A DNA stretch of 64,000 nt from a plasmid, in sequence record NZ_CP085281.1; one strand, 5' to 3'. The translations under genes and the position numbers were made by a program. Position 1 is the stretch's first letter; each line of letters opens with the position of its first letter. The notes beneath the pieces were generated by a model, which had not been told where the DNA came from, ran no database searches, and saw only the letters and a program-made list of their open reading frames with translations. Below, piece by piece: positions 7,636 to 60,389 of the stretch.

Positions 7636-7647
7636 CGCGGTAGCGCC

Positions 7648-7692
7648 GATGCCACGTCCCCGCCGCCCGCCTCGATGCGGGGACGTGGCATC
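7648..7692. terminator. 14-bp perfect inverted repeat GATGCCACGTCCCC-N17-GGGGACGTGGCATC immediately after the helicase stop; terminator and/or operator.
   Basis: Read directly. The arms are copies of the recurring window motif. There is no T-tract, which is common in mycobacteria. Confidence 0.4.
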
Positions 7693-7765
7693 ACCCCTGG
7701 TCGGCGGCCTAACGGGATACGCTCGCTGCTGTGATCCGCTCAGCACTGCACCCAGGCCCCGCGCG

Positions 7766-8716
7766 ATGGTGAAACGCAGAGCTGCCCCGTGGGCCCCCAC
7801 CAGTGTGCCCGACATGCGCCGCCAGTGGTGCAAGGCTCTGGACACCCTGGTCGATCGCCAATCGTCAGCCCTGCATGAGCCGTCCGGCGCCCCAGCAGAG
7901 GGCGGTCGGCGCCTGCAGCGCATGCAGGCCAAGCTGGCCGAATCGCTGACCCAGATGAGCACCGAGACGGATGCGATCCGCCGCGCGGAGCTGTACTGGG
8001 TCTCGCGCGACATGGTCGACGTCGCTCTGGACGCCGCCGACTCGCTACCGGAGTGGACGCCGGCGATCGCCGCCCCCGCGCCCACAGGGGTGTTGTGCTG
8101 GGCCAAGCCGGCCGGCGACGTTCCCTGGAACGCGTTGAGCTCAACAGACCCCACCGAAGTGTCCTGGGACGGCTTGTGGTGGTGGTCGCGACCCGATGGC
8201 AAACTCCAGCTTCAACCGCTCTCACGGCTCGCCAAGAACCGCGAGCTGCTCGCCCCCTACGAGGTGTCCTCACCGCTGTGGGCGACGAACCCGACACTGC
8301 TGCTCGAACCGCTGGTTCCCCGTACCGCCGAGGTGGCCCGCTCCGCTGAGTCCTCCCCCTTGGTGAGCGTGGTCGGCGCGGCGTGGCTACTGATGGGCCA
8401 GCCCACCGTTGCGGCCACCAGGCCCCTCGAATCGTCGACGCGCGCTCGCGCCGACGGCGACTCGGATACGCGCCACCCAGATCCCGACCGGGTCAGCATC
8501 ATCGAACTGCGACGTCCAATGAGCCCTCCCCGCGAGCACGACGGCACCAGCTCCGAGCGGACATATCAGCGCCGATGGTGGGTGGGCGGGCACTGGCGTC
8601 AACAAGCGTGCGGACCCAACCATGCTGACCGACGTCCGAAGTGGATCGCACCATACGTCAAGGGCCCTGAAGGAGCCCCGTTGACCAAAGACCGCGTTCA
8701 CGTGTGGCGCCGCTGA
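7766..8716 (+). CDS. Hypothetical protein.
   Basis: ORF 7649..8716 has strong GC3 bias. The upstream 7649 start lies inside the hairpin, so the ATG at 7766 (MVKRRAAPW…) is preferred. No recognisable domains (Trp-rich). Confidence 0.45.
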   Translation: MVKRRAAPWAPTSVPDMRRQWCKALDTLVDRQSSALHEPSGAPAEGGRRLQRMQAKLAESLTQMSTETDAIRRAELYWVSRDMVDVALDAADSLPEWTPAIAAPAPTGVLCWAKPAGDVPWNALSSTDPTEVSWDGLWWWSRPDGKLQLQPLSRLAKNRELLAPYEVSSPLWATNPTLLLEPLVPRTAEVARSAESSPLVSVVGAAWLLMGQPTVAATRPLESSTRARADGDSDTRHPDPDRVSIIELRRPMSPPREHDGTSSERTYQRRWWVGGHWRQQACGPNHADRRPKWIAPYVKGPEGAPLTKDRVHVWRR

Positions 8717-9948
8717 GCGCGCCTGTCAGGAGGGACTCGGTGACCACACCCCGCCACGACCCGCAGCTGTCCGCGATCCTCGACCATTTCGCATTGGTGA
8801 AGCGCGAAGGAAACTGCTCGGGGCCGGCAGCGCACCAACTCCGCAACCTGATTCTCGAGGAGTACCAGGAAAGACAGGCCCCGCCACGGCGGCTGGATGC
8901 CATCCGATTGATGACCAACCTGCGCGCCTACCGGGGGTGGAGCCCGCTGCCGTGTTCGACCGTGGCTCTCACCGATACCGACACCGAGGCCTATCTGGAC
9001 GACAGAGACGGCTCAATCATCCGCTGGATTCGCCGGATCGAGATGACCATGCTGCTGTACGCCGACGAGTTCGTCGAGCAAGATCCGCTGTCCTTTGAAC
9101 AGCACTACGCGGGCCCCTTCGATCCTGAAAGCGCCCCGGAAGGCCTCGCGTGGCGCTGCATGACAAGCCTTGACCGCCTCTCGAAGGTGAAGCCACTCAT
9201 CGACGCCGGGATCCTCATCATGGCTCCCATCGCCGATGATCCCGACGATTCGATGGACAGCACAGACACCGAGTTCGAGCAGTACTTGCGTGCAAGGGGA
9301 TTCACTGCTGGCGAGATCCGAGACCTCAGTCCTTTTGAGCCTTGGTATCTGCGCGACGCGCGCAGGAACGCGCTCCTTAATGACGCGACGCTCATACCCA
9401 CACAATCGTTTCACTGGCACTATCTCGCTTTTCTGGATGCTCGGGAGGCTGGCCGGCACCGCGCCCCGGAACCGCCGGCCGCCACCACTGCTGAGCAGGT
9501 GGCGTCGAGCCTTCTCACCCTCGATCTACCGATCTTTGCCGGCGCACCCGTCGACACCTTGGTGAAGATCCATCAGAACGAAGAGGCGTTCGCGGAGTGG
9601 AGGGCGGCGCTACGCGGGGCCGCTCGACAGATCAACGCAACATGCACTGACAGCGGGTTTCAGGACGACGCGAGAGAGGTCTATGAGGACATGCTGCTCC
9701 CCATAACCGCCGCCGTCGACCGTGCCACGAAACGTTCTCGCGTGCTCAAGAACCTTGCCCTGGAGCAGGCTGCGCGCGTCTCGTTGGGAGCGACCCTTGG
9801 GTATGCCAGCAGCACCATGCTCGGGTTGCCCCCGACTGGTGCGGTGTCCGGTGCCGTCGTCGGCGGATTGACCAGCGCCGCCTACGGCGTCATGCGACCC
9901 GAGAAGCCGAAGGGTGCGGCCGCCATCATCTCCATGCTCAAGCGATGA
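8704..9948 (+). CDS. Hypothetical protein with a Gly/Ala-rich hydrophobic C-terminal segment.
   Basis: 414-aa ORF whose start overlaps the stop of the upstream gene. Codon bias fits. C-terminus …GAVSGAVVGGLTSAAYGVM…. Confidence 0.5.
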   Translation: MAPLSAPVRRDSVTTPRHDPQLSAILDHFALVKREGNCSGPAAHQLRNLILEEYQERQAPPRRLDAIRLMTNLRAYRGWSPLPCSTVALTDTDTEAYLDDRDGSIIRWIRRIEMTMLLYADEFVEQDPLSFEQHYAGPFDPESAPEGLAWRCMTSLDRLSKVKPLIDAGILIMAPIADDPDDSMDSTDTEFEQYLRARGFTAGEIRDLSPFEPWYLRDARRNALLNDATLIPTQSFHWHYLAFLDAREAGRHRAPEPPAATTAEQVASSLLTLDLPIFAGAPVDTLVKIHQNEEAFAEWRAALRGAARQINATCTDSGFQDDAREVYEDMLLPITAAVDRATKRSRVLKNLALEQAARVSLGATLGYASSTMLGLPPTGAVSGAVVGGLTSAAYGVMRPEKPKGAAAIISMLKR

Positions 9949-10023
9949 CCTTGCCCCCGGTCAGCGCTGCTGCGCTGCTGTCGCTTACGTGCCCACCCGA
10001 GGAATTGGACTTCTGTACCGCTG

Positions 10024-10323: not shown

Positions 10324-10325
10324 TC

Positions 10326-11072: not shown

Positions 11073-11133
11073 GCCGGGTGGCCGTCCTTCCTTGTTTACT
11101 TAGCGTCGACAGTGTCAGTCGCCGCTACTGCTC

Positions 11134-13553: not shown

Positions 13554-13699
13554 CGCCGCTGTCCCTTTCTCGTTCGCTTCCTAATTGGTGAAGTACCTGC
13601 GCGGCGGCCGGTTTCCGTCGCCGCGCCCCGATTTGCCTTCGATGACCTGGCCCGATGGCAGGTCCCCCGTGCGCGCCTGACCGTCCGGCTGGCCTTGCG

Positions 13700-16275: not shown

Positions 16276-16490
16276 CGCATCTACCTCCCCAAGTCAGTCG
16301 CCCTAATCGGCGCGAATCTGCAAATCCAACCAGTTACGATTTGCATATCGGTAGGGGCAAGATTAGCGGCTGACTACGCCATATCCGGTTCCCCGAAAAG
16401 GTAAATTTCTCCGTGATGGTTAACTTGGCGACACCGTTCCGAGTGCACCTGGACCTTCACATCAGCCGGCACGCCCCAGCCAGGGAAAAC

Positions 16491-16507
16491 GACACGTCCC
16501 CGCCGCC
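16491..16507. promoter_or_regulatory. Copy of the recurring motif (GACACGTCCCCGCCGCC) in the whiB-operon upstream region.
   Basis: Read directly. It shares CACGTCCCCGCCGCC with the copy at 7648. Confidence 0.4.
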
Positions 16508-17835: not shown

Positions 17836-18588
17836 CTACTCGGACTCGGGCAGGAACTCGTCGGGGACGAAGTACGCCGGGGGCACACTGAAGAGCCGGG
17901 CCAGCTCGTGGACCACGTCCAGGCGGGGCGGTGCCTCGCCGTGGAAGTAGCGGTAGATCTGGGTCTGCGACACCGGCAGATCCGGGGCCTGCTCCTTGAG
18001 CATCCGCTGAATCCGCAACGGCGTGAGCTTGCGGACCCGATCGGTGTCGAGCATGCGCACGTTCATGCTGGCGGCCAGCGCCTGGAAACGCGTGGCGAAG
18101 TACTCCGTCGCAACGTGTGGCGGATCGATGGCCGTCTTGTCACGCTGTCCGCTGCGCGCCGATTCGAGATCCACGCCACTGAAGCTGGGGATCTCGTCGT
18201 CGGTGCCCTCGACGAAGTAGGTGGGCGTCACTCCGAAGAGCCGCGCCAGCTCGTAGACGACGTCCAGTCGGGGCGGCGCCTCGCCGTGGAAGTAGCGATA
18301 GATCTGGGTCTGCGACACCGGCAAATCCGGGGCCTGCTCCTTGAGCATCCGCTGAATCCGCAACGGCGTGAGCTTGCGGACCCGATCGGTGTCCAGCATC
18401 CGCACCTTCATGCTGCCAGCTAATTCTTGAAACTTCTTCGAGAAGAATTCGGTGGCGACATGCGGCGGATCAATCACCGCCCGCGCCTGCGCTGGCACCG
18501 CAGGAACCAACTGGTGCGATGCCACTTCCTGCCTTCCGCCAGCACGATCGGTGTCAACGTCGGAGGCGTTGTCCACGTGGTTGGTCAT
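17836..18588 (-). CDS. Protein with two tandem XRE/EspR-like HTH repeats.
   Basis: Two ~115-aa repeats (IDPPHVATE[FY]F…RMLDTDRVRKLTPLRIQRMLKEQAPDLPVSQTQIYRYFHGEAPPRLDVV.ELARLF). The DNA shows a matching 345-bp tandem direct repeat. Confidence 0.7.
   Translation of the reverse strand: MTNHVDNASDVDTDRAGGRQEVASHQLVPAVPAQARAVIDPPHVATEFFSKKFQELAGSMKVRMLDTDRVRKLTPLRIQRMLKEQAPDLPVSQTQIYRYFHGEAPPRLDVVYELARLFGVTPTYFVEGTDDEIPSFSGVDLESARSGQRDKTAIDPPHVATEYFATRFQALAASMNVRMLDTDRVRKLTPLRIQRMLKEQAPDLPVSQTQIYRYFHGEAPPRLDVVHELARLFSVPPAYFVPDEFLPESE
17880..18569. repeat. 345-bp tandem direct repeat (2 units) inside the HTH gene. The ~125-bp core is ~97% identical.
   Basis: Compared directly: 17934-18059 versus 18279-18404. 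Confidence 0.8.
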
Positions 18589-18656: not shown

Positions 18657-19079
18657 CTAGCCGCCCACACCCGATTCGCCACTCTGGTCCGTCATATTCG
18701 GGACAGCCGTGACCGGCGGCGGCAGGACACGCGCGACACCGGGGATCTGAACCCCACGTCGTTCGAGAAATTCCTGGATCGCCAGGGACGTCGCATCACC
18801 CTTGGGCAATTCGTACTCGTCGATGAACGCGGCAAAGGCGGTGTGCACCTGAGAGTTGATGTGCACGTTCAAGCCTGTGCGTTTGACCTTGCGGCTGCGC
18901 AGCTGCTCCAGGGCGGGATCATGGGCAACCAGATCGGCCACCGCGCTGCCTGCAGGTCCTGGCTGCGCGGCCGGTGCGGCCGCTGCCGCACCCGAGGGCA
19001 CACCACGAACCCGGGCGGCATCCGGTGACACCGCACGGCCACGGGCATTGGGCAGCGGCATGGCAGCGTCCTTAGCCAT
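18657..19079 (-). CDS. Putative ParB/ParG-like partition protein.
   Basis: 140-aa ORF. Its start overlaps the parA stop. Basic/Ala-rich N-terminus. Confidence 0.45.
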   Translation of the reverse strand: MAKDAAMPLPNARGRAVSPDAARVRGVPSGAAAAAPAAQPGPAGSAVADLVAHDPALEQLRSRKVKRTGLNVHINSQVHTAFAAFIDEYELPKGDATSLAIQEFLERRGVQIPGVARVLPPPVTAVPNMTDQSGESGVGG

Positions 19080-21925: not shown

Positions 21926-21993
21926 CGTGACCACGCGACCGACTGCGCGCAGGCATCCGTCGGCCGCGGCCGACAGCCAAATAACCCTCGGCC

Positions 21994-22920: not shown

Positions 22921-24867
22921 CTATTCGGCCGGCGGGGGCCGGTAGTTGCGCGGTGGGCGTCGCGGCGCCGGCGGCGGCGGAGTCTCCGAGATCCGCTGGC
23001 TGCGCGGAACACGTTGAGGTCCACCGAGATCGCGGTGGCGACCGTTGCCGTTCGATCCCGTCGCGGCCTGTCCGGATCCAGACGGCACGGGCGGGGCCGG
23101 CGCAGGGGTGGGAGCCCACGCCACCTGCTCGGCCGGAGCCGCCGGCGCAGGTGCAGGGGCGGACCTGCGTGGGCTGGGCGGCGGGGCAGCATGGCGGCGT
23201 GGTGTGCGAGTCAAGACCGGAGCGGTGGAGACCACCCGCCGCGGCTGCCCGATGTTCTCCGAGCCCAAGCCCAGGTAGCGGTCTTCCTCACGCGTCCGGA
23301 TCGTCCACAGGGTGATCGGTTCGGCACCCTCGATCGACACCTCCAACACCTGACCGGGGCCCTCCACCAAGGTCATGTCCGCTCCTCCGGCGACGGTATC
23401 GGGGCCCAGCAGGCGCAGCACGGTGCGGGCGGGCACCGTAGTAACGGTGCGGCCATCGAAGACCGCGACGTCGCAGGTGCGGGCGCCAGCGGTCGCGTAG
23501 AACAGTCGCTGATCGTCGTTGACGGTGGCGACCAGTCCCTCCCAGCGCTGCCGGTCATCGGTGTGGATGGCCACCACCGCGCCGGTCACCACCGCACGCA
23601 GCACCAGCTGACGTGCCACCTCCACACCGACCCGGGCGTCGATGCGACGGCGCTTGGGGGCGCCCGATTGATCCCACAGCGGAACTGCGGCCAAGGTCCC
23701 TTCGTCGAGCTGCCCGAGGATCTGTCCCGACGGCCCGATCGGCACCCGCACGTCGCGCACGACACCGAAGTCCACCGTCGGCATCTTCGCCGCGAGTGCG
23801 CGATCGCCACCGGGCAATCCGGCGTCGAGCATTTGCCGCTGAATTCCGGTGGGGCGGGACAGTTTTGCCTCGGCCAGCGGTTTGTAGGCCTTGCCGTGGT
23901 GGACGTAGCGGATGAGAACCCCGACCTGGACGTCGGCGACGCTAGTGGCTCGGGTCAACCGGATGACGGTGACCGTCTCCTCGGTGCGCCACGACCACCA
24001 TCGATCGAACTGACCCTGCGCCAGCAGTTCTGGGTTACCGACGTAGGTGGTGATGAAGTTGGGCCCAGACCGGATGTAGGACCACTTCTCCTGGTTGTCG
24101 ACCGGTCCGACCGGCGCCAATAGCACGTCCCTCATGGCGTCGAGGTCCTCGGCGGACAGTGCGTGGGCGCGGATCTGCTCCTGCTGCAGGCGCTGCACCG
24201 CACGGTGAGCCGCCGCGGCCAGCGCCTTGGGGCCGGCGCTGCGCGAGGGTCCACGCTCGACGATGCGGTCCAAGTTGTCCAACGAGTTGAGCCGCAGCAC
24301 CAGCCAGGTCCGCCGCTGGCCGACCAATGGCCGGGGCCCCACCGATTGCGCATACACCGTCCGATAGGCGGTGCCTGGCGGCACGTGACAGCCGGCCTCG
24401 ACGACGTCGATATCGATGTCGAGCCCGTACTGACTCATCAAGGACACCACCAACGACAACGGCAACTCACTGCCGCTGACGGTCCGGCCGCCCGACTCGG
24501 TGGTCAACGCCAGGTTCGGGCCCACTTCCACGGCGGCGACCAACGTATGTCCATCCCACCGCACGCCGGCATTACCGGAGATGACATTGATCTCGGTCGC
24601 CGGCGTCAACTCCGGCGGTAGTGGTTGGCGACGGTGCCGCAGGAAGGACCACACCACCGCGAGCCACTCGACGAGCACCACACGTCCCCGGATCGGGATG
24701 AACAGTGCGACTGCGCCAACGAGCAGGATCAGCACCGCCGCCCACACGGGCAGCACTTTGGCCAACGTGAAGGCGACGGTGATCCACACACCGATCCCGT
24801 AGACCAGCGCCGAGACCATGGGGATGCGGATCCACCGTCCCCGCGGCCGGGTCGTCTTCGCCATCAT
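22921..24867 (-). CDS. eccE: ESX secretion system protein EccE, with a Pro-rich C-terminal tail.
   Basis: Two N-terminal TM helices. QRRTWLVLRLNSLDN resembles the EccE1 HRRTWLVLRLNPQ motif. ATGA overlap with the mycP stop. Confidence 0.8.
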   Translation of the reverse strand: MMAKTTRPRGRWIRIPMVSALVYGIGVWITVAFTLAKVLPVWAAVLILLVGAVALFIPIRGRVVLVEWLAVVWSFLRHRRQPLPPELTPATEINVISGNAGVRWDGHTLVAAVEVGPNLALTTESGGRTVSGSELPLSLVVSLMSQYGLDIDIDVVEAGCHVPPGTAYRTVYAQSVGPRPLVGQRRTWLVLRLNSLDNLDRIVERGPSRSAGPKALAAAAHRAVQRLQQEQIRAHALSAEDLDAMRDVLLAPVGPVDNQEKWSYIRSGPNFITTYVGNPELLAQGQFDRWWSWRTEETVTVIRLTRATSVADVQVGVLIRYVHHGKAYKPLAEAKLSRPTGIQRQMLDAGLPGGDRALAAKMPTVDFGVVRDVRVPIGPSGQILGQLDEGTLAAVPLWDQSGAPKRRRIDARVGVEVARQLVLRAVVTGAVVAIHTDDRQRWEGLVATVNDDQRLFYATAGARTCDVAVFDGRTVTTVPARTVLRLLGPDTVAGGADMTLVEGPGQVLEVSIEGAEPITLWTIRTREEDRYLGLGSENIGQPRRVVSTAPVLTRTPRRHAAPPPSPRRSAPAPAPAAPAEQVAWAPTPAPAPPVPSGSGQAATGSNGNGRHRDLGGPQRVPRSQRISETPPPPAPRRPPRNYRPPPAE

Positions 24868-29441: not shown

Positions 29442-29596
29442 CTCTCCCCGCAAAATCAGAAGGCATGATCGGCCTGTTATCCGATCGCCTGTCAGCTGTC
29501 GCTTCGGGCATTCCCCGAAGCCATTCTCCCAGCGTTCACCAGCACACTAGCGCACGATTTTGGCCAAACTCGGCGCCGATTACTGCCCGTTTTCCA

Positions 29597-29614
29597 GCAC
29601 CGATGCCACGTCCC
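29597..29614. promoter_or_regulatory. Copy of the recurring motif (GCACCGATGCCACGTCCC) upstream of the EspI-like gene.
   Basis: Read directly. Confidence 0.4.
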
Positions 29615-29615
29615 G

Positions 29616-49625: not shown

Positions 49626-50012
49626 CTACTTCACGTCGGTCACGACGATCGGGAGCCAGTTGCGCACCGACACCGACCATTTGCCCTCCTGGACGAGGTC
49701 GGCCAGCTCCTGGCACTGCTCGTCGGTGGTGACGTCCCAGCCTTGCCCGATCACATTGACCGGGCCGCGCACACCCGCACGCCAATCGAGCACGGAGTAC
49801 TCCAAGGCGCCGCGCCGCCGAAACGGCGCCTGTCGGGTGAGCACGACGACGTCCTGCCCGGCCACCGCCCGTATCGTCCACCACCCCCGCTCGGCGTCGA
49901 GCCTGACCCGCTGACCGACTGCCATGGCCACCGGCGTCATCGGCTCGACCTGGTAGTACCGGCGCTGCTGCGATCGTTCGGCATTGGTGAGCGTGTCCGT
50001 AGTGGTCATGAC
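49626..50012 (-). CDS. Hypothetical protein (~128 aa).
   Basis: MTTTDTLTNAERSQQRRYYQVEPMTPVAMAVGQRVRL…. Confidence 0.4.
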   Translation of the reverse strand, partial: VMTTTDTLTNAERSQQRRYYQVEPMTPVAMAVGQRVRLDAERGWWTIRAVAGQDVVVLTRQAPFRRRGALEYSVLDWRAGVRGPVNVIGQGWDVTTDEQCQELADLVQEGKWSVSVRNWLPIVVTDVK

Positions 50013-50584
50013 CGTGCCTCCTGAACTGTGGTGGATGCTCCTACCTGGTAAGTACCGCCGCGGGCGGGCGTTTCCGTCATTGCGGACGGATATTGATCCC
50101 AGGTCCACCCGTCCAGGACTCGCCCGGCGCGATGCTTGCCGACGCGGACAGCGATCGTGTCGCGGTCGAGTAGCACGGTGTTGGTGGTGCGCTCGCCCAC
50201 CTCCATCAGCCGCTCATGCCCGCCCCGCAGGGTGGTTGCCCCCGGCGCGGGCACGCGGATCACCGGCGAGCGCCGGCCTCCCAGGGGGTGGTCGTAGGCG
50301 CGCCCGAAGCGGAAGTCCTCGTCATCGGTGACCGCGACGGGCAGGTACTCACCGAATTGCTTGAAGTAGAACGCGATGCCTGCTTGCACGCATTCGTCGC
50401 GGATGCCGCGCACCCAGTCCGGATGCAGGGGGCGTGCCTGGGGGCCCGATTCGCCGCCGGCGATGACCCAGTGCAGCACCTCCCGCACGTTCAGACGTTG
50501 CCCGTCCCAGGTCGGATGATCTTGTGGTGGCGTCCATTTCCGCAGAGCCTGACGCAACGCGACGTATTCGAGCAACGGCTCCAT
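50006..50584 (-). pseudogene. C-terminal fragment of a Gp37/Gp68 (DUF5131) phage-family gene, separated from its N-terminal part by a ~7.5 kb insertion.
   Basis: …EPLLEYV…HWVIAGGESGPQARPLHPDWVRGIRDECVQAGIAFYFKQFGEY matches the family C-terminus. It continues exactly where the N-terminal fragment at 58116..58703 ends. Confidence 0.7.
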
Positions 50585-50638
50585 CGACAGGTAGCTTCTC
50601 CGAACTTCCCGAGTCGGGCTCGGGACGATGTTCTGGGT

Positions 50639-50900
50639 TCACGTACGCCCCGGAGGTTCCTCCGTGTGCCGGGCACCAGGGAGCCCAAGTGTGACAATCT
50701 TCTGCATTCTCTGCAGCTTCTGCTCGGCTGCCGCAATACTAATTGCAAGCCCTTCTATTTCACCGAGCCATCCTTGTGCCTTCGCTTCTTTTGTGCGCTC
50801 TTGGAGATTGTCGATTATTTCGATCAGTCGACTCTGCTGGGCTGGGTCCGGCTGAAGCATCGCGCAGCGGATGCAAGCTTCTCTGAACTTAGCTGGGGCA
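50639..50900 (-). pseudogene. C-terminal remnant (~80 aa) of a third large tyrosine recombinase.
   Basis: …CAATMNGSLSAPAKFREACIRCAMLQPDPAQQSRLIEIIDNLQERTKEAKAQGWLGEIEGLAISIAAAEQKL aligns with the C-termini of the two large recombinases (…CGRAFGTPCFHEHACVRCSLLRPDPAQRPRLEEIRSNLEDRIEEAKLHGWLGEVEGLQVSLAGVKDKL). Confidence 0.5.
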
Positions 50901-50913
50901 CTTAGCGATCCGT

Positions 50914-53217
50914 TCATCGTGGCCGCGCATTTGTTGGTAGGGAGGGGGTTCCGAGGTCGACCGCGAGGCGACGGCTCGTGTCGATCTGAGTGAGTTTGTC
51001 TTTCACCCCGGCGAGGCTGACTTGGAGTCCCTCGACTTCGCCGAGCCAGCCGTGAAGTTTGGCCTCCTCGATTCGGTCCTCGAGGTTGCTGCGGATCTCT
51101 TCCAGGCGTGGTCGTTGCGCTGGGTCCGGCCGGAGAAGCGAACATCGGACGCAAGCGTGCTCGTGAAAACACGGCGTTCCAAACGCGCGGCCGCACGTCC
51201 CGACCGACACCTTGCGCTTCTCGAAGTGGGCGAGGAAGTCGTCCCACTCGTCCTCGGTCGGGGTCCGGTACTCCTCGCTGGGTCGGGTTGCCCGTCGGCG
51301 AGCGATGAACGCTCGGTGGGCTTCGATCGCTTCCATGGGGTAGACGGCTTTGTATCCCATGGTTGTGTCAATTGTCTTGTGCCCGCAGATGATTTGGGCG
51401 ATGTGCGGTGGTAGCCCGCTCATGATTGCGTCGGTGACGAAGATCCTTCTGAAGTCGTGGGGCGAGAAAATCAGCGGTTCGCCGGTGGCGTCGGTGAGCC
51501 CGCTGGCGGCGAGTGCGTCGATGAGCAGTTTGCGGATCGCACTGGGTGTGAAGGGGCGGTGCTCGTTGCCGATGGCGCGTTGGAACAGCAGCGGCATCGG
51601 CGGGTTCCAGACTCGCTCTCGGGTGTCGTAGGACGGCACCAGGGGTATCGCACCGCTTGGTGCGCGGAGGCGGGTGATGATGGCGCTGAGCACGTCGGCG
51701 AGTTCGGGGCTGACGAGCAGCAGGCGTTCGGTGTCGGTCTTGGAGGGGGCGATCTGCAGCAGCGGCACCACTTCGCCGCTGGAGGGCAGGCGGTATTCGG
51801 TGATGCTGTGGTGGCTGAGTTCAAGCAGTTCCTCACAGCGGATGCCGGTCAGTCGCAATACTTCAATCGTCGCGAACGCCCAGAACGCCTCGTCGTCCTC
51901 GTAGGACAGGTTGCGCCGTTTGCCCGTGGCCGTGTCGTCGGCCCAGACGTGGCGGCCTATGGCTTTGGGGACGTGCGCTTTCCGTAATTTGGCGTCGGTG
52001 CCGGGGATCAGGGTTCCAGACACCGTCTGGTCAGCGGCCTGCAAGAACTGTTGTGCGGTGCGGCGGCGCTCGTTCGCGGTGCGCACCAGCACCGGCAGCA
52101 CAGGCAGTCGTTCGCGGGTGCGCTGGTCCATCCGAGCCTTGCGGTGTTTGCGTTCCTTGGCTCGTCGGATCTCGGCGTCGCCAATCGGGCAGGGAGCCGC
52201 CCACCGGGCCCATCGGGCGGGATCGTCGACGGCCCATTGAGCGATGTCGAGGTAGAACGCTCGCACCCGGAGTAGTTCGTCTTTGGCGTTGAGTCGCGGG
52301 GTTGCGACCTCGATCTGCTCACCGGCGGCGTTGGTGATCGTTCGCTTCTTGGTGGCCAGGTCGTCCTTCCAGGTCCGGATGACGTCCTGGGGCAGCTGCA
52401 GGGTGTCGATGCCCGGTGCGATGGCTTCGATGCGGGCCCAGAACAGCCCGGCCAGGCTGCGGGAGATCGCGTCGATGCTGGCGAAGTCCAGCGACGGCTG
52501 ACGTTCCCGCAGGTAGTCGACAAGCAGGTCGCGAATGGGTCGGCAACGCAACGGATATCGATCCACTAATTCTTCGATCGTGAGTCGCCCGGTGGCTTGC
52601 CCGAATGCGCGAATCGTGTGCGGCGCATCGTCGGGGAAGATGCCAATCGCACGCAGGCGTAGGTAGAAGTCGACCTTCTTTTGTCCGCCGCGAGCGTGTA
52701 CCTGGCGCAGGGTGTCGACCAGTTCGACACAGTCGCCGACAGTGATGTCGGCGACACGTCCGCCCTTGCACGCGAGGATGGTCGCGATCCTGGTCGCCGC
52801 GACCCGCGCGTCGACGGCGGAGCTGGCCGGTTGGGTCTCGGCGAGTCGCCGCAGCTGGGCGAACCCTTGCGGGTCTCTGATGTGCGCCATCGCACCGGCC
52901 AGCCGGGCGTGGGTGCGGGTAAGCATCCACGGCACACCCGGACGGATGACGTCGCCGCAGATCAACACGAGCAGGCCCGAGGCCAGATCGTCGACGTCGT
53001 ACGACGCGTCCTGACCGCGCTCCTGCAGCCACCTCAGTGAGAGCCCGGTCCAGGTCTTGCCGGGATGCTGCTCGACGCCACTGAGTTCCCAACGCTGTTG
53101 CCAGGTGTCGCCCGGAAACGTCGCCAGCCAGTCCAGCAGCTTGGTCACACCGCGTCGTCGACCCGCCTGGGTCCCCTTGACATCCGAGGTAAACAATCCG
53201 GAGGTCAGCCTGACCAT
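50914..53217 (-). CDS. Large tyrosine recombinase (second copy, TnpB-like).
   Basis: Catalytic region …FSPHDFRRIFVTDAI…GHKTIDTTMGY…. C-terminal Cys4/His cluster. Probable ATG at 53217; the 990-aa listed ORF is over-extended. Confidence 0.75.
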   Translation of the reverse strand: MVRLTSGLFTSDVKGTQAGRRRGVTKLLDWLATFPGDTWQQRWELSGVEQHPGKTWTGLSLRWLQERGQDASYDVDDLASGLLVLICGDVIRPGVPWMLTRTHARLAGAMAHIRDPQGFAQLRRLAETQPASSAVDARVAATRIATILACKGGRVADITVGDCVELVDTLRQVHARGGQKKVDFYLRLRAIGIFPDDAPHTIRAFGQATGRLTIEELVDRYPLRCRPIRDLLVDYLRERQPSLDFASIDAISRSLAGLFWARIEAIAPGIDTLQLPQDVIRTWKDDLATKKRTITNAAGEQIEVATPRLNAKDELLRVRAFYLDIAQWAVDDPARWARWAAPCPIGDAEIRRAKERKHRKARMDQRTRERLPVLPVLVRTANERRRTAQQFLQAADQTVSGTLIPGTDAKLRKAHVPKAIGRHVWADDTATGKRRNLSYEDDEAFWAFATIEVLRLTGIRCEELLELSHHSITEYRLPSSGEVVPLLQIAPSKTDTERLLLVSPELADVLSAIITRLRAPSGAIPLVPSYDTRERVWNPPMPLLFQRAIGNEHRPFTPSAIRKLLIDALAASGLTDATGEPLIFSPHDFRRIFVTDAIMSGLPPHIAQIICGHKTIDTTMGYKAVYPMEAIEAHRAFIARRRATRPSEEYRTPTEDEWDDFLAHFEKRKVSVGTCGRAFGTPCFHEHACVRCSLLRPDPAQRPRLEEIRSNLEDRIEEAKLHGWLGEVEGLQVSLAGVKDKLTQIDTSRRLAVDLGTPSLPTNARPR

Positions 53218-53372
53218 GGTGTCCTGGGCGGTTCCGGCCGTGGCTGCCCCACAATGCTCGGGCTGACGGGCGGGGAACCGTTCGCGCAGCTGCTTGTTCC
53301 GCCCGCTGATCTGAGTCTTGGTCGCATTCGCCACGGCAAGTGGTTTGCGCGCAACGTGTTTGGCGATCGTGG

Positions 53373-54626
53373 TCACATCGACCTCCCGAACAGGACGCTC
53401 AGCGACTGCGGGTCGTAGCCCGGCGCCGGCGGCGGTGGAACCGGATCTTCGCGCCGCGCCGCTTGCCGCGCGTGGTGAGCCAGCACACTCGCTACGACCT
53501 CCTCTTTGGAGGGCGTCAAATACAACTCGGTGGTGGTCAAGTGGGCGTGGCCCATCACCCACTGCACGTCGCTCAACGTCATCTGCGGATCCCGCGCCAT
53601 CCGCATCGCGGCGCTGTGCCGCAGGTCGTGCAACGTCCAATCCGAGCCCAGGCAGGCATTGGCCCGCTCGAACATCCTGTGCGCGGCGTGATAGGTCAGC
53701 GGACGGTGTGGTCGGCGTAGTGTCCACCACAGCGGCCGGGTCCGGCCACGCGGCAACTTGGCCTGCAGGTCTTGCTGATACAGGCGGAGCCACACAAATG
53801 CGTCCGCCGCCGCGGGCAGTTGCTGTATGGCGCGGGAACCCTTGCGCACCACGGTGATCAGTTGTTGGCCTGGGTCGACATCGCACTGGCGAACCCCCAG
53901 CAGCTCGGACGCGCGGGCTCCCGTTGAGATCCAGAATGCAACCATTGCTCGGTCCCGATTCGACGGCAGCGCGGTGAACAGCGTGTTGAACCGATCGTCG
54001 GGTATCGCCCGCGGAATCCGCTGCGGCATTTTGGGGCGATAGCGCCCTACACGGTCGTGCTTCCAGGCCTCCATCGGGTTGTGGTGGGCATTCGCCCGCT
54101 CCGACCGACGTGCGATATCGAGGGGAAACGGATTCAAGATCGGTCCGGCACCGAGGTCACGCTGGAAGTCGTAGAAGCCGCGTAGCACCGTCTCGCTGTG
54201 AGCGATCGTCGCCGGGGCATACCCGGGGCCGAGGGCGGCCTTGCCCGTTACGGGGTTCGGCGGCCCAACCGACTCCACGGTTGCAACCACTTGGTCCGAC
54301 GATGGCCTTCTCCGGTGTTTGACCGTCAGCTGAATCCAACAGCTGAAATCGCGCGCTTCGATCCGCGTCGCGCGGCGCCAATCGACATCGACCGCGCCGA
54401 GGAATCTCCACCACCGCAGCAAGTCCATGCCGTAGGAACGCAGCGTCGCTGGAGAACGCCCAGCCGCGAGCAGCTCCCGTAGAAACGCGGCCACTGATTC
54501 CACGACGGCGCCCTCGGCGTCGATCAACCGGTAAGGCTCACCCAGATCGCCGGTTGAGGCGAGCTCCCCACAGCGAGAAACAACAAGACGGGCTACATCC
54601 CTGGTTTGTACTGGCTCTTGGTTCAT
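53373..54626 (-). CDS. Tyrosine recombinase (second copy, TnpA-like).
   Basis: R…HxxR…Y motifs (LHDLRHSAAMRMA, MGHAHLTTTELY). Paralog of 56830..58056. Confidence 0.85.
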   Translation of the reverse strand: MNQEPVQTRDVARLVVSRCGELASTGDLGEPYRLIDAEGAVVESVAAFLRELLAAGRSPATLRSYGMDLLRWWRFLGAVDVDWRRATRIEARDFSCWIQLTVKHRRRPSSDQVVATVESVGPPNPVTGKAALGPGYAPATIAHSETVLRGFYDFQRDLGAGPILNPFPLDIARRSERANAHHNPMEAWKHDRVGRYRPKMPQRIPRAIPDDRFNTLFTALPSNRDRAMVAFWISTGARASELLGVRQCDVDPGQQLITVVRKGSRAIQQLPAAADAFVWLRLYQQDLQAKLPRGRTRPLWWTLRRPHRPLTYHAAHRMFERANACLGSDWTLHDLRHSAAMRMARDPQMTLSDVQWVMGHAHLTTTELYLTPSKEEVVASVLAHHARQAARREDPVPPPPAPGYDPQSLSVLFGRSM

Positions 54627-54652
54627 GGCCGAAAGCTATCGGGGCCGGCGCA

Positions 54653-56751
54653 TTACGCCGCGCCACGCCACGCGGCTGGGCCAGTTAGTTCAGTCAACGG
54701 TGCGTGTTCGTGTGCGCAAGGAGTGCCGTAAGCGCGGCCGCAGACTCCCAATTCGACTTTCCTCTTGGTGAAATGTTGATGGAATTCATCGAGTTCATCT
54801 TCGGTTGGCTCTCGATACTCTTCGGATGGCCGCATGGATCGTCTGCTCTCAACGAACTTGCGGTAGTGGTTAATGACGTCTTCTTGGTAAATCGCTGTGT
54901 AGCCCTGGGTTGTGTTGATGTTCTCGTGACCCATGAGCCTCGCGAGGATGTGCACGGGCAGCCCGCCCGCCAGCGCGTCTGTCGCAAACACTCGCCTGAA
55001 GTCATGCGGCGACACCTTCAGGGGCTGTCCCGCCGCGTCGGTCAGGCCGCTCTGCGTGATCGCGTTCGAGATCATCGTGGTCATGTGGCCGGCGGACATT
55101 ATTCGCCTCTGGGTCCCGTGAACACGCTGGAATAGATAGGGCAACGGCACCGTGGTCACTCGCTCGTAGGGGTCGTACCGTGGAACGCAGGGAACTTGGG
55201 CGCTGCCAGCCCGCACACGGTGGCGGACTTGAGCCAGGACGTGGGCCAGTTCGGGGGGCACCATCAAGATGCGTTCCTTGTCGGACTTCGATGGGGCGAT
55301 CTGTAGTAGCGGGATCACGCCTCCGTCTGGTAGCCGATAGGTGAAGAGGGCAGTCGCGGTGATCTCCGAAAGTTCCTCCAGCCGAACTCCGGTGTAGTAG
55401 AACGTGTTGACGACCGCCCACGTCCAGAACGCAAGATCCTCGGATCGATCGAGGTCAACGCGTTCACCGGTATCAACTTTCGTGGCCCAGGTTCGTCCGG
55501 TCGGCTTATAGGACCCCATACTGGCGGAGGTGAGTTCAGTTCGTTCGTAGACATTGCCATCGAAGGTGAACCGCTGTCCCGCTGAATGTCTCAGCGCCAA
55601 CGCTAAGAAGTCGCGCTGGGACTGGCGCTGCTCATCGACGGCGGCGAGCAACTTCGGCATCGCAGGCAAGATCTGCCGGGTCTTTTGCTGCAGTCGGGCC
55701 TGGACCTGGCGCTTGTGCTTAGCCGCTCCGCGTGTGTCATCACGCGTGAGGAAACACGGTGCAGCCCAATGAGCCCATTCTGCATCTTGGGTAGCCCAGT
55801 GCGCGATGTCGAGGTAGAACGCTCTGACCGCGATGAGCATTGGGTACGGATCCGTGCCGGCTGCATGGTTAGCCTGCTTCCACCGACGACCGACCTCTGC
55901 CGGCAGAGCGAAGGTCGTTAGCCCAGGATTCTCGTCCTGGATCACTCTCCAAAACCGTCCGCAGAGCTTGTAGGCAAGTGAGCGCAGCGTCACGTAGTCC
56001 GTCACTGCCGCCCGCTCGTGGAGGTACCGGACGAAGACGTCCCGTTGTGGTTGCGCGATCTCGTAGAAGTCAACCATCTCTTCAACGGTGTACTGCCCTC
56101 GGCGGGCGATCTGGCGCAGCGGAAGAGCGTCCGCTGGGATGGCTCCGTGCATCTGAAGCAGATCCCAGGCGTAGTCGACCCCGTCGTTCTTCCCCTTCGT
56201 GCGCAGAATCTCCTGGCGGTAGAACAGGACATCATCTGCCTTCAGGTCTCGAATAGCCTTGCCGGTAAACAGCATCATCCGCTCAATCGCTGTCACAGCC
56301 TGGTGGAATTGCCTTGAAGCGGTTCCTTTTTCATCGTCGAAAGTCTTGGCCTTCGTATAGAAGTCGGGATCCCTGAGCTTGCCGGCGACTGTCGGTGCTG
56401 TGTTGAGCCTCGCGAACCTGAGCCAGTAGTAGGACGGTCGGATCGCGTCGAGGATCAGCAGTACGCCCACAGCAATCTTGGATTCCTGGGACTGTGAGAC
56501 GGCGGACAGATGGCTCCACGGATCTCCCAATCGCTGCATCCAGTCGGCGCCCTCCTCGTCACAGCCGGCATTAATCCACCGCTGCTGCCAAGAGTCTCCT
56601 TCGAAGGCCTGCAACGCAACGCAGAGTACGCGTAGCCCACGCTTCACCGTATCCGGGCGGGCCTTGTGAATCGGAAGCCGAAGAGCTTGCTCAGTTAGGC
56701 TGTCCACATCCAATCTGGTTGCAGGCCAGCTTGTGTCACGGCGAGGCGGCA
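54653..56751 (-). CDS. Large tyrosine recombinase (first copy, TnpB-like).
   Basis: …SPHDFRRVFATDAL…LMGHENINTTQGY…. Cys/His cluster at the C-terminus. Probable ATG at 56751. Confidence 0.75.
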
Positions 56752-56829
56752 TGACGGCGGCTCTCATACCCAGTGGTACGGGGGCCTGCGGAGCGACGGG
56801 CCCGATCGCGGGTGCGGCGCCAAGTCTCG

Positions 56830-58056
56830 TCACTGTGCACCGCCGAACAGCTCGTCCATGTCGGCCGCCGAGTAATCCGCGGCGAGGGTGGCCGAGATTG
56901 CGCTGTCGATCTGCGGGCCCGCAGCCATTCGCTCTCTGAGCCACTTGTAGTGGGTTTGGGCATGAGTGAAGACGTCGGCTTCTCTAGGCCGGAGGTACTT
57001 CTGGGTCGTTACGAGCGACGAATGCCCGAGAATCGTCTGAATATCGGTGAGGGTCATGTTCGGGTCCTCCTGCATCCGCATCGCTGCGGTGTGGCGCAAA
57101 TCGTGCAGCGACCAGTTGGCCCCGAGTGTGTCGTTGACGCGACGCAGGACTGCTCTCAACGCGTCGTATCCGAGTGGTCGATAGGGTTTGCGAATGGTCC
57201 ACCACGCCATCGACTCTGGTTGCGTCAGTTCCGTCGGCAGGGTCGCTTGGTAGAGGTTGAACCAGACAAAAGCGTCAGGCGATGCTGGGATACGCTGCAA
57301 CACGCGAGTGCCCTTCCTCAGGACCGTTATCGTCTGCTCGTCCCACCGCACCATCCCGTTAGTGAGGCCGAGCAGCTCAGCTGGCCGGGCAGCACTTGAT
57401 AGGTAGAAGGCGATCAGCGCACGGTCGCGATGAGACGAGAGGCCACGAAACACATTGTCTACGTCTGCGTCTGAGAGATGGCGTGGTGTCAGTGATGGGG
57501 CCTTCTGGCGGTAGTCGCCGCGCCGCTCCGTAGGGAGCAGGCGCATCGGGTTGTGGTGAGCTGCATAGCGGTCACCGTCGCGAGCCACCCTGGTCGGCAC
57601 TGGGTTCACCAACGGCCCCGTTCGTGCGTGCACGTGGAAGTCGTAGAACGCGGCCACCACCGAAAGGTTGTGATTGATGGTGGTGGGCGCGTAACCGTCG
57701 CCCGCGTACCGTTTTCCCGTCACCGAATTCACAGAGCCTGGAATGTGCTTCTTGGCGACGCGACGACGGTACTTGACGGCAACCTTCATCCACGCCACGA
57801 AATCTCGCACATCCTCGCGTGTGGCCGCCGCCCATGGACGATCGATATGCCAGAGAAAGCGAAACCAGCGGAGTAGCGCCTGGGAATACGACTTCGCGCT
57901 TGAATTGCTGTTATCGCGAATTGTGAAATCGAGCAGGAACTCACTGCAGCATTGAACCGCATCGCCGGAACCGTCGAGCACAATCCAGGAAGGGATCCCG
58001 CTCGGCTGAGCGATTATTCGACCAATCCTACAAATTTCGTATATCGGCATTGGCAA
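56830..58056 (-). CDS. Tyrosine recombinase (first copy, TnpA-like).
   Basis: LHDLRHTAAMRMQ, LGHSSLVTTQKY. Confidence 0.85.
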   Translation of the reverse strand: MPMPIYEICRIGRIIAQPSGIPSWIVLDGSGDAVQCCSEFLLDFTIRDNSNSSAKSYSQALLRWFRFLWHIDRPWAAATREDVRDFVAWMKVAVKYRRRVAKKHIPGSVNSVTGKRYAGDGYAPTTINHNLSVVAAFYDFHVHARTGPLVNPVPTRVARDGDRYAAHHNPMRLLPTERRGDYRQKAPSLTPRHLSDADVDNVFRGLSSHRDRALIAFYLSSAARPAELLGLTNGMVRWDEQTITVLRKGTRVLQRIPASPDAFVWFNLYQATLPTELTQPESMAWWTIRKPYRPLGYDALRAVLRRVNDTLGANWSLHDLRHTAAMRMQEDPNMTLTDIQTILGHSSLVTTQKYLRPREADVFTHAQTHYKWLRERMAAGPQIDSAISATLAADYSAADMDELFGGAQ

Positions 58057-58115
58057 TTGGTCCTTCCGTGCGGCGAGAGAAGCCGACTCCAGTCGACCAG
58101 CCTCAGGCCCCTTCG

Positions 58116-58703
58116 CTAAGCCGACACACCGGTAGTTCGGTCAACATGTCGAACGGCGGCCGGAGTGTCCAGCAGCGCCGGGATCCGCCTGTCGGCCCAG
58201 TACTGACTCTCCACGCTGACACCCAGCCACACGTTCGGCAGAAACCCCTGCAGTTGCCCGTGATTGGGCCAGTACTGCTCGCGTGACGGCCGCTGCGCCA
58301 TGACGTGCTCACCGAAATCGGTGACCGCCGCCCAGAACCGAGCACTCCTGAGCAGGGAGCGCATCCGACCGTGCCGCTTGGTCAACACCTGAAAGGTGTG
58401 GGTGGCGCAGCTCTGCATCACCGCGAACACGTGCGCGATGTACTCGTCGGGCACCTTCTCGTGGAACAAGTCACCGGTGGAACACACGAACACCTTGCGC
58501 GGCGCCCGCCAACGCATCGGCTGATCGAGCCGCTCCGGCCACAACGTGACATCAAACCCGTTGGGCCACGCCTTGGTTCCCGCAAATCGGCGAGCATTCC
58601 TGGCGGCGTAGCAGTTGTCGCATCCCGGCGAGATTGGGGTGCACCCGGTGACCACCGGCCACGTCGAATTGGTCCATTCGATCTTGCTGCGAGCCCCCAT
58701 CAC
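58116..58703 (-). pseudogene. N-terminal fragment of the Gp37/Gp68 (DUF5131) gene.
   Basis: …SKIEWTNSTWPVVTGCTPISPGCDNCYAARNARRF… Authentic sequence ends at …PAAVRHV, followed by 8 insertion-derived codons and a stop. Confidence 0.7.
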
Positions 58704-58981
58704 AGCACCCCGTCATCGGGCCGCCACGTCTCGGGCTTGCCTTCAGCCTGCACCAGCGGGTAGGCCGGAACACACCCGCGGTTGCGTGCGTGACTCAGCG
58801 CGTCGACGACAGCCGCCTTCGGCAGCAGCCACCGTCGCGGCCCTTCCCAGCCGCAGCTGCACACGGCCTGGCGGCGCCGGCGCCCGGGCGCGGCCAGCAC
58901 GCCGACCACCGCTGCGCGCGGCGTGTCCGGATCTGTTGGCACCGGCCTCGTTTCGGTACGCACTGCGTCAACGTTGATCAT
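58700..58981 (-). CDS. Small hypothetical protein (~93 aa).
   Basis: MINVDAVRTETRPV…. Its stop overlaps the Gp37 start (ATGA). Weak call. Confidence 0.3.
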   Translation of the reverse strand: MINVDAVRTETRPVPTDPDTPRAAVVGVLAAPGRRRRQAVCSCGWEGPRRWLLPKAAVVDALSHARNRGCVPAYPLVQAEGKPETWRPDDGVL

Positions 58982-59703
58982 CGCGATTCTCCTGTCGCAC
59001 TGGTGATGTCGATGCCGTGATGCGTCGCCACGGCGGTCAGCACCGAACACGGGGACCGCACGATGCACTCGCACGACCCGATGGTGTCTTCGAACTCTCC
59101 GGCCCACGAACCAGCAATGAACGTGCACGCCCAGCACGCCACGATCGCCTCAGGGCAGTGCTTCGCTCCGACGCCGTGCGTGTCCTCGATCCCGCCGTCC
59201 CAGCAGCCCTCGCACACCACCCCAACCGGGCGATGCCGAGTGATGTGGGCCAGCAGCTCGGACACCGCACCGGGCTCCAGCCGCCCGGACACCGCGTCGT
59301 TGTGGGCGGCCAGGACCGCACGCACGATGACGGCCAACAGATCGGGATCGTGCCCGGTGTTCTCGATCAATCCCCGCTCGACTGGATCTGGTGCGTAGGA
59401 GCCGATTTCGTCTTCCACTGTGTTCAGGTGCAGAGCGACGATCCAGCCGCACCGCTCACAGCGGCGCGTACTCAAATGCGGGTTGGCGTAGTCGTAGCGA
59501 CCCCATTTACGGGCCAGCGTGACCCGTTCCCCGCACACCCCGTGCAGCTCGGCGTCACGGGCCGCTCGCCCCCTGCGCCGGCCTTCGTCGATCAGGGGCA
59601 CGGCCTCCAGCAGGTCCACCGCGTGGCGGCGATGCCGTCCGGGCCCAACGCCGAATCGGTCAGCCGGCGTCATCACCGCGGCACCGACACCGTCGGCGTT
59701 CAC
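58978..59703 (-). CDS. Cys-rich hypothetical protein.
   Basis: Candidate GTG start at 59703 overlaps the ASCH stop (GTGA). Multiple CxxC pairs (CERCGW, CEGCWDG, CWAC). Confidence 0.4.
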   Translation of the reverse strand: MNADGVGAAVMTPADRFGVGPGRHRRHAVDLLEAVPLIDEGRRRGRAARDAELHGVCGERVTLARKWGRYDYANPHLSTRRCERCGWIVALHLNTVEDEIGSYAPDPVERGLIENTGHDPDLLAVIVRAVLAAHNDAVSGRLEPGAVSELLAHITRHRPVGVVCEGCWDGGIEDTHGVGAKHCPEAIVACWACTFIAGSWAGEFEDTIGSCECIVRSPCSVLTAVATHHGIDITSATGESR

Positions 59704-60215
59704 CGCGTCACCCCGGCGCGCTCGACGACATCGACGGGCGGAATCCAGAGCCCAAGTGCGCCTGGACATGGGATGGGCTCCGCCAGCGGCGTGCGGTCTT
59801 CGAGCACCAGATGCACCACGCGCCGCCGCTGCCGCCCGCCGTGTTCGACATAGCTCGATTCCCCCCACGGCTTGCAGCAGCCGGCGTCGAGATGGCAGTC
59901 GACGAGGACCGCGGCCCCGATGACGGCCGACATGTCCAGAGCGCCGGCCAGCGAGCGCCCGTGGGCGGCCTGTTGAATCAACGGCGACTCATCGCCGCGC
60001 TGTGACCACCGCGCCCCCGCGTGGATGAGTAGCGGGCCCCGATGAGCCCACGCCTGCGAGCGGTTTTCCACGTCCTTGCCGGCCGACACAATCGCCCACG
60101 CCCACGGCTGCTGAATGGTGATCGCCCGCACGCCGAGGTCGGCGACACGGGCACCCCGCCGCGGTTGGCGCGTCGACGGCGTGGCCCCCGAGATCACGGT
60201 GGACGGGTGTGGCAT
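59700..60215 (-). CDS. ASCH (PUA-like) domain protein.
   Basis: …RAITIQQPWAWAIVSAGKDVENRSQ…GPLLIHAG…. ATG at 60215. Confidence 0.6.
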   Translation of the reverse strand: MPHPSTVISGATPSTRQPRRGARVADLGVRAITIQQPWAWAIVSAGKDVENRSQAWAHRGPLLIHAGARWSQRGDESPLIQQAAHGRSLAGALDMSAVIGAAVLVDCHLDAGCCKPWGESSYVEHGGRQRRRVVHLVLEDRTPLAEPIPCPGALGLWIPPVDVVERAGVTR

Positions 60216-60367
60216 CGGCAATCCTCTCCTGGAGTTGCTGCAGATCGTAACGCCAGATTCCGCGCACTCATGGGCTCGCTGCCTGCGAGTTTCACGGCAC
60301 AAGGGCCATTGTTTTCCACCTACGGTGACTATTTGCGGCTTGGGCTGGCCGAGTCGCACCGCCACAC

Positions 60368-60389
60368 CAGCGGCGATGCCACGTCCCCC
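60368..60389. promoter_or_regulatory. Motif copy CAGCGGCGATGCCACGTCCCCC upstream of the ASCH gene.
   Basis: Read directly. Confidence 0.45.

Follow-up and report, generated by a model that had tools for sequence, protein, structure and literature searches.

A dispersed asymmetric DNA motif conserved among plasmids of the Mycobacteriales

We describe a repeated DNA motif in a stretch of 64,000 nucleotides (64 kb; the window) from the plasmid record NZ_CP085281.1. The plasmid is mycobacterial and GC-rich, and the genes in the window include an ESX locus with eccA upstream of eccB, dnaB, whiB, parA and a gene for a secreted ADP-ribosyltransferase. The motif is strongly over-represented and plasmid-specific, its positions are conserved, and selection acts on it as DNA. 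Because of its high information content, its location on plasmid contigs, its mixed orientation, its tolerated placement and its origin in place, we consider that it is likely a plasmid-wide protein-binding site. The more specific reading that we favor, with a probability of roughly 0.35, is that the motif could be an asymmetric double-stranded DNA recognition sequence of the backbone of protein-capped linear ("invertron") plasmids in the order Mycobacteriales and serve there as a signal for a DNA-handling machine.

Form, abundance and conservation of the motif

The motif is read here on the minus strand, which is the strand of the surrounding minus-strand genes. In this orientation its core is GGGGACGTG[T/G/C]CATC-N4-CTGGT, mostly followed by CA and with a loosely conserved N4, and it can also be written GGGGACGTGKCATC-N4-CTGGT(CA). 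The first-pass annotation, made by a model from the letters of the window alone, had reported a recurrent repeat of about 20 bp. The repeat is real, but its true core is longer, at 23-25 bp. Many copies carry a third block, GTTTC, about 9 nt beyond CTGGT(CA), so that the whole site is then up to ~36 bp long, as in CCCGAAAC-N8-ACCAGCGGCGATGACACGTCCCC. This block is enriched at +29 to +34, and its distance is constant in the Rhodococcus equi plasmid pVAPN.

The abundance of the motif in the window is far above expectation. With up to two mismatches allowed, GATGCCACGTCCCC has 11 matches against 1.6 expected, a number that none of 100 shuffles reaches, and a 20-mer with up to three mismatches has six matches against 0.06 expected. 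A weight matrix made from 89 non-redundant instances gives 15 sites in the window (Table 1) and none in shuffles. The information content is ~30 bits at most, since seeding the instances on a 14-mer makes this figure an upper bound. All eight copies that had been listed earlier, as a minimum, are present at those positions or a few bases away, and the matrix adds the copies at 2109, 13645, 18784, 24110, 42501 and 42768. The 25 identical bases reported for the copies at 45086 and 46232 are confirmed. The copy described as a hairpin is indeed a perfect inverted pair, with a 14-bp stem (7648-7661 / 7679-7692) and a 17-nt loop. The site at 18784 is the weakest and could be a chance match. A scan of the window against Rfam gave no match at the gathering score. 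In the literature on the sequence itself and on linear plasmids of mycobacteria and Rhodococcus, we found no description of the motif, and sequence matches occur only in unrelated papers.

Table 1. Copies of the motif found in the window by the weight matrix, with their surroundings and their counterparts elsewhere
Position	Strand	Score (bits)	Surroundings in the window	Counterparts
2109..2131	+	22.5	Inside minus-strand gene 632-2515; gene-strand peptide T-S-D-D-G-T-S-P	p1-JPH1 45746, 21/23 identical
7639..7661	-		3 nt past the stop of the 1602-aa methyltransferase/helicase gene; left arm of inverted pair	p1-JPH1 51408; M. rhodesiae (L005) 7420
7679..7701	+	35.0	Right arm of inverted pair	p1-JPH1 similarity ends at window 7702, directly after the copy
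13645..13667	-	20.4	32 nt past the stop of the DUF6551 gene (Pfam), 156 nt before the dnaB start	p1-JPH1 55757
16479..16501	-	21.8	Upstream of the whiB operon, 81 nt past the preceding stop codon	p1-JPH1, 19/23 identical; flanks 33/50 and 27/50
18784..18806	+	12.8 (weak)	Inside a 140-aa gene downstream of parA, antisense
24110..24132	-	15.7 (weak)	Inside eccE, sense strand	p1-JPH1 63655
29593..29615	-	26.4	Abuts the espG stop, 139 nt before the EspI-like ParA/MinD gene (Pfam)	p1-JPH1, degenerate; length unchanged, point changes only
42501..42523	-	21.7	Convergent gap between 42028-42501 (plus) and 42540-42767 (minus)	p1-JPH1 82134
42768..42790	+	18.1	Flanked by the ADP-ribosyltransferase gene and the small ORF downstream of it	p1-JPH1 82399; Rhodococcus (L010) 1224; pVAPN 52073; R. 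ruber 35272
45088..45110	-	32.7	Precedes the ADP-ribosyltransferase gene by 104 nt	At the border of a segment that p1-JPH1 lacks
46234..46256	-	30.3	In a window-specific segment
46333..46355	-	30.9	Overlaps the stop codon of gene 46355-46684
46985..47007	+	29.8	Overlaps the stop codon of XRE-like gene 47007-47375	p1-JPH1 90731
60366..60388	-	32.0	94 nt past the stop of the GNAT-kinase fusion gene	p1-JPH1 95672, 21/23 identical; flanks 27/50 and 26/50

The sole close relative of the window among plasmid records is p1-JPH1 of Mycobacterium avium, at ~82% identity, which was picked by homology and independently of the motif. The weight matrix finds 29 sites in its 191 kb against 0.2 expected. About 10 sites of the window have a partner at the same position in p1-JPH1, and over nine matched pairs, two coding ones included, the 23-bp site is 81% identical, compared with 69% in the 50-bp flanks. 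For example, the copy upstream of whiB is a conserved island in diverged sequence. The position of the copy at 42768 is kept across genera (Table 1). The ends of p1-JPH1 (L001, 1-364, and the end of L004) are 364-bp imperfect inverted repeats of 76% identity, and because of these repeats p1-JPH1 is probably linear with protein-capped ends. M. avium has been shown to carry related linear plasmids with protein caps, which have no relaxase and whose ESX locus likewise has eccA upstream of eccB (PMC12803027); the paper does not mention the motif.

The copies inside genes bear on the level at which selection works. Their gene strand is almost always ACC AGC xxx GAT GAC ACG TCC CC, which encodes T-S-x-D-D-T-S-P. 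In p1-JPH1, all seven coding copies that keep the first aspartate encode it by GAT, never by the usual GAC, and they use the same ACG TCC CC codons. The peptide repeat TSxDDTSP as the primary target was ruled out because the codons are invariant, the rare GAT included. Under a codon-usage model the opposite-strand frame, G-D-V-S-x-x-L-V, is equally likely a priori, yet it is rare, and the orientation preference within genes is ~2:1 to 9:1. In the ADP-ribosylglycohydrolase genes of Rhodococcus, GDVSSxLV is encoded by a perfect motif, whereas the mycobacterial orthologs have S/T/K-D-V-x-x-x-L-A/E at the same place, on non-motif DNA. Therefore, this copy arose by point changes in the existing gene, at a position where the protein tolerated them. 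Judging from such comparisons of codons and orthologs, selection acts on the motif at the DNA level. A role of the ATG in GATGAC as a start codon was also rejected: the open reading frames (ORFs) from there are not conserved, and the one in locus L005 stops after 10 codons.

Distribution, placement and plasmid ends

The motif belongs to plasmids of one bacterial order. In a search of one genome per species (596 Gb), the exact 23-mer GGGGACGTGKCATCNNNNCTGGT was found at 42 loci. Mycobacteriales account for 38 of these, in Mycobacterium, Mycolicibacterium, Rhodococcus, Nocardia and unnamed Actinomycetota genome bins, often with several loci per contig. Those 8-kb loci hold extra copies with one mismatch, up to nine per locus. 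No match was found in the viral contigs that we searched. When a 30-nt consensus was compared with plasmid records, Rhodococcus and Prescottella records led, and the matches include the classic linear plasmids pRHL1-3, pROB01/02, pBD2, pNSL1 and pVAPN. The weight matrix gives 33 sites in the linear plasmid pVAPN1571 of R. equi (120 kb), 23 in a linear plasmid of R. ruber (75 kb) and none in two controls, a plasmid of M. dioxanotrophicus (50 kb) and a plasmid region of M. arabiense (41 kb). The two controls are GC-rich mycobacterial plasmids and amount to 91 kb. The earlier suggestion of an element-specific repeat has thus held up, in the sense that the motif is specific to a plasmid lineage and occupies the same positions in p1-JPH1.

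The motif is found in very different gene contexts. The window has hardly any genes in common with the Rhodococcus and Nocardia loci apart from the module of ADP-ribosyltransferase, small ORF and ADP-ribosylglycohydrolase. This module, at 42540-44983 in the window and 49787-53367 in pVAPN (L049/L050), is common to Mycobacterium and Rhodococcus linear plasmids, with 61% protein identity; the glycohydrolase gene is separated from the other two module genes in both the window and p1-JPH1. Recently acquired DNA is without motif sites. None is found in two segments of the window that are presumed to be foreign, the IS1245 copy and a 7.5-kb low-GC insertion, and none in the vap gene region of pVAPN (53.4-77.6 kb). 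The ESX core of the window has only two sites.

Placement was tallied by hand, from the weight-matrix sites and the annotations; orientation was scored on the window and three annotated plasmids, and convergent and divergent gaps on the three plasmids. Relative to the neighboring gene, about 53 sites point one way and 33 the other (~62:38). Convergent gaps hold 12 sites and divergent gaps four, so that sites are about three times rarer in the latter. There are 38 sites within 40 nt of a stop codon, many of which overlap the stop through the motif's own TGA, and the distances in the window include 0, 0, 0, 3, 16, 30 and 32 nt. Some copies are 0-12 nt from a start codon. The first-pass annotation had placed all copies between genes and mostly upstream of minus-strand operons. 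The former does not hold, since the copies at 2109, 18784 and 24110 are in coding sequence, and of the latter it is true that several copies are so placed, but they are equally just past the preceding stop codon.

Strand use differs between replicons. In p1-JPH1, which has a Rep-like ORF near 183 kb, the strands are balanced (16 plus, 13 minus). In the 39-kb arm to the left of the rep gene of pVAPN, all 16 sites are on one strand regardless of gene direction; the counts are 10 of 17 in the right arm and 7 of 16 in the long arm of the R. ruber plasmid. A polarity of replication arms, as strand-polar motifs such as Chi and Ter have, is confined to the conserved arm of pVAPN-type plasmids. In Rhodococcus plasmids, the inner edge of each terminal inverted repeat holds one copy, ~510-570 nt from the end of the plasmid. 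The terminal repeats of pVAPN (L049, 1-569, and the end of L051) are 569 bp long and end 1 nt beyond the copy, and those of pROB02 (L056, 1-584, and the end of L057) are 584 bp long and end 18 nt beyond it. In both plasmids the terminal copy is the variant (C/G)GGGACATG(C/T)CA(T/C)CAC(C/A)CCAG, and the same variant is close to one end of pBD2 and of the R. ruber plasmid.

Possible functions of the motif

We suggest that a plasmid-encoded or plasmid-used protein binds the motif at many places along the replicon. The selected quantity would be the copy number of the motif on the plasmid, not the control of one neighboring gene. Because selection would act on the number of copies, these would accumulate where they are least harmful, that is, at stop codons, in convergent gaps and in stretches of genes that tolerate T-S-x-D-D-T-S-P. 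Tentatively, the motif may be a signal for a DNA-handling machine, such as a transfer translocase or a segregation or telomere factor. Our guess is a cis-acting "self" signal, read by an FtsK/SpoIIIE-type translocase of the transfer system or by a segregation or telomere-associated protein. Its logic would be that of the uptake signal sequences (USS) of Haemophilus and the DNA uptake sequences (DUS) of Neisseria, or of the clt/TraB recognition sequence (TRS) sites of Streptomyces. In such a scheme, the copy at each terminal-repeat edge would tie the motif to telomere handling. It seems unlikely that the self signal allows an FtsK-type/type VII-type IV transfer apparatus to pick up and pump the double-stranded DNA of those Mycobacteriales linear plasmids that have no relaxase.

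Dispersed recognition words are a known kind of element, and this motif is new in its sequence, length, host elements and distribution. Like USS and DUS, it is a lineage-specific word far above chance on both strands, it is found after genes and sometimes as inverted pairs (here 7639-7701), it has a preferred and tolerated frame within genes, and it arises in place by point mutation. Unlike them, it is 23-36 bp long (USS and DUS have 9-12 bp plus flanks), its density is 5-10 times lower, and it is carried by plasmids and not chromosomes. The Streptomyces clt/TRS sites (read by TraB), the FtsK orienting polar sequences (KOPS) and the SpoIIIE recognition sequences (SRS) are similar in being cis words for FtsK-family pumps, with actinobacterial conjugative elements among them, and the motif-bearing plasmids encode FtsK/SpoIIIE-domain proteins according to their annotations. 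However, clt is 8 bp and clustered and KOPS are strand-polar, whereas the motif is long and dispersed and has no consistent polarity, being balanced in p1-JPH1 though one-sided in the left arm of pVAPN. pVAPN encodes a MobF relaxase, unlike the relaxase-free M. avium linear plasmids. The repetitive extragenic palindromic (REP) sequences and bacterial interspersed mosaic elements (BIME) also prefer the 3' ends of genes and are scarce in promoter regions, but REP sequences are palindromic hairpins, and the motif folds no more strongly than control windows. A parS centromere was rejected, since the motif is asymmetric and dispersed and has no cluster beside parA (19072-19947).

Several observations weigh against a signal of the plasmid backbone. 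Among the DNA-binding candidates on motif-bearing plasmids, no binder was found. An XRE-like protein (47007-47375 in the window) is encoded on all four fully scanned replicons, namely the window, p1-JPH1, pVAPN and the R. ruber plasmid, and it is the only DNA-binding family seen on all of them. It was rejected as the binder because it occurs in only 48 plasmid records and is missing from pBD2, pRHL1-3 and pROB02. There is no copy of the motif near the examined ends of p1-JPH1, and because of this the link to telomeres is not universal. The density of one copy per 3-6 kb is below that of true uptake sequences, the transfer-gene region of pVAPN (15-31 kb) has no sites, and the orientation preference within genes is explained only indirectly, through the tolerated peptide. 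Other candidate readers were also dropped. A WhiA paralog of p1-JPH1 was considered because GACAC is inside the T variant, but pVAPN, the R. ruber plasmid and the window all lack WhiA. The plasmid sigma factors are not homologous to each other. Pfam searches with small conserved proteins beside the sites gave nothing informative, and comparison of the DUF6551 and tandem helix-turn-helix (HTH) proteins with solved structures gave no useful match.

The first-pass annotation had proposed that a regulator encoded on the element, WhiB-like, EspR-like or XRE, binds the motif at minus-strand operons. Several copies are indeed 100-200 nt upstream of, and co-directional with, whiB, EspI-eccD, the ADP-ribosyltransferase gene and dnaB, and a conserved promoter-like block follows the copy between espG and the EspI-like gene. 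This copy, however, has decayed in p1-JPH1 while the adjoining block is 100% conserved. Elsewhere the copies are in both orientations, in genes and in convergent gaps, and no core promoter is at a fixed distance; no TANNNT or other -10 element is found at a fixed offset on either side of the motif. The same motif is also present on plasmids of Rhodococcus and Nocardia whose genes are almost all different from those of the window. In a tblastn comparison, which did not include WhiB itself, homologs of the tandem-HTH protein next to WhiB and of the "EspR-like" XRE protein were limited to the window and p1-JPH1 among the sequences compared. It is therefore improbable that the motif is an ordinary operator or activator site for a handful of minus-strand operons.

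In another reading, a global repressor uses the copies as operators throughout the plasmid. It would silence the backbone by blocking RNA polymerase and, bound at gene ends and within transfer genes, would halt elongation until it leaves. The models here are the stoperators of cluster A mycobacteriophages (the L5 gp71 sites), which are 13 bp and nearly all one-way relative to transcription, and the dispersed C1 operators of phage P1. The motif resembles both in being asymmetric and element-wide, with many copies and most of them in short intergenic gaps or overlapping stops, and in its actinobacterial host. Clusters of two or three sites, 78-160 bp apart, are kept between species in transfer-region genes, the orientation preference within genes is what a polar block would give, an ImmR/ImmA-like repressor/protease pair is encoded at 62215-63171, and the inward-pointing copy at each terminal repeat could keep transcription out of the telomere. 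Yet the split of only ~62:38 is far from the single direction of stoperators, and when we compared annotations by hand the distance to the next start codon was equal for both orientations. Sites are under-represented in divergent gaps, which contain promoters, no repressor is common to all motif-bearing plasmids, and the element is a linear plasmid, with no match in viral contigs. We regard global silencing as possible but rather doubtful.

We consider a promoter of a plasmid-encoded alternative sigma factor or dedicated RNA polymerase highly improbable. The conserved block is long and contiguous, and p1-JPH1 and pVAPN each encode a sigma-70 family protein, but these two proteins are unrelated in sequence, and the annotation of the R. 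ruber plasmid contains no sigma gene. The block spacings of 23-25 nt match no -35/-10 rule, so a promoter of the extracytoplasmic function (ECF) type does not fit in either direction. In two window copies, the spacing TGGCAT-N5-CTGC resembles the -24/-12 elements of sigma-54. This was dropped because the dominant T variant loses the GG of the -24 element and because Actinobacteria are not known to have RpoN. In addition, with mixed orientation half of the copies would drive antisense transcription into a gene's 3' end, and some copies are 0-12 nt from a start codon or within genes.

The motif could also be a recombination or mobile-element site, for example an attC-like cassette boundary, a miniature transposon end or a place where linear plasmids preferentially exchange arms. 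Copies adjoin four or five points at which the synteny of the window and p1-JPH1 breaks, the inner boundaries of the terminal repeats of pVAPN and pROB02 are just past a copy, locus L009 has a 103-bp inverted pair, and in the Nocardia locus L031 single-gene units are separated by copies beside a tyrosine recombinase. The latter locus prompted a comparison with integron-like cassettes, which were rejected since the boundaries are not sharp: 2.8% of similarity end-points are 10 nt or less from a site, no more than about twice the 1.4% for random positions. Folding of 133 sites gave a mean z of -0.24, compared with -0.27 in control windows, and the only hairpin is the 7639-7701 pair. Intrinsic terminators, REP sequences and attC hairpins were rejected for this lack of excess folding. 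Most copies are solitary, and the espG/EspI and glycohydrolase copies differ from their counterparts by point changes only, which does not fit transposon ends or miniature transposons. Sites arise and decay in place without insertion or deletion, and the 6 kb of small genes that replace the window's cassette-like segment in p1-JPH1 have no copies. A recombination site is thus quite unlikely.

The backbone signal that we favor would matter because genes for virulence, catabolism and type VII secretion are found on linear plasmids in M. avium, R. equi and environmental rhodococci. With up to ~30 bits and a presence across at least five genera, the motif appears to point to an undescribed conserved protein-DNA interaction. 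It is a simple marker for fragments of this plasmid group in draft assemblies, and it can be used as bait to find its putative binding protein. It is also a handle on the movement or upkeep of linear plasmids in pathogenic and environmental Mycobacteriales.

Neighboring elements of the window

Two further sequences that had been likened to the motif are different from it. The supposed split inverted copy flanking an IS1081-like element corresponds to the terminal inverted repeats of an IS1245 copy (IS256 family) at 20517-21936. This copy is 99.9-100% identical to those on M. avium plasmids and has a 9-bp target duplication, ACGCGACCG, and there is no IS1245 at the matching position of p1-JPH1. 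The palindrome at 2887-2904, thought to have a similar core, is a perfect 20-bp palindrome at 2886-2905 (CGCCGGAACACGTTCCGGCG) that is unrelated to the motif. This possible operator lies where the methyltransferase/helicase ORF begins.

The other presumed foreign segment splits a DUF5131 (phage Gp37/Gp68) gene into a C-terminal part at 50006-50584 and an N-terminal part at 58116-58703. The 7.5-kb insertion, at 50594-58149, has a lower GC content of 0.61-0.64 and ORFs of 990, 763, 417 and 408 aa, and it is missing from p1-JPH1. p1-JPH1 also lacks the two plus-strand genes at 7766-8716 and 8704-9948. Homologs of the former follow the same methyltransferase gene in M. rhodesiae JS60 (L005) and in a Mycobacteriaceae genome bin (L036).

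Three other features could be regulatory. At 17836-18588, an HTH regulator with two HTH_3 domains is confined, within the sequences compared, to the window and p1-JPH1, and its gene contains an internal DNA duplication, since 17867-18129 and 18212-18474 cross-align in BLAST against p1-JPH1. In a highly conserved block upstream of whiB, at ~16319-16345, the inverted repeat TGCAAATC-N11-GATTTGCA, which is also present in p1-JPH1, looks like an operator. In the gap between espG and the EspI-like gene, a 53-bp block at ~29500-29560 (GAGTTTGGCCAAAATCGTGCGCTAGTGTGCTGGTGAACGCTGGGAGAATGGCT) is 100% identical to p1-JPH1 and contains a -10-like hexamer, TAGTGT; the actual promoter of the EspI-eccD-mycP-eccE unit is probably this block.

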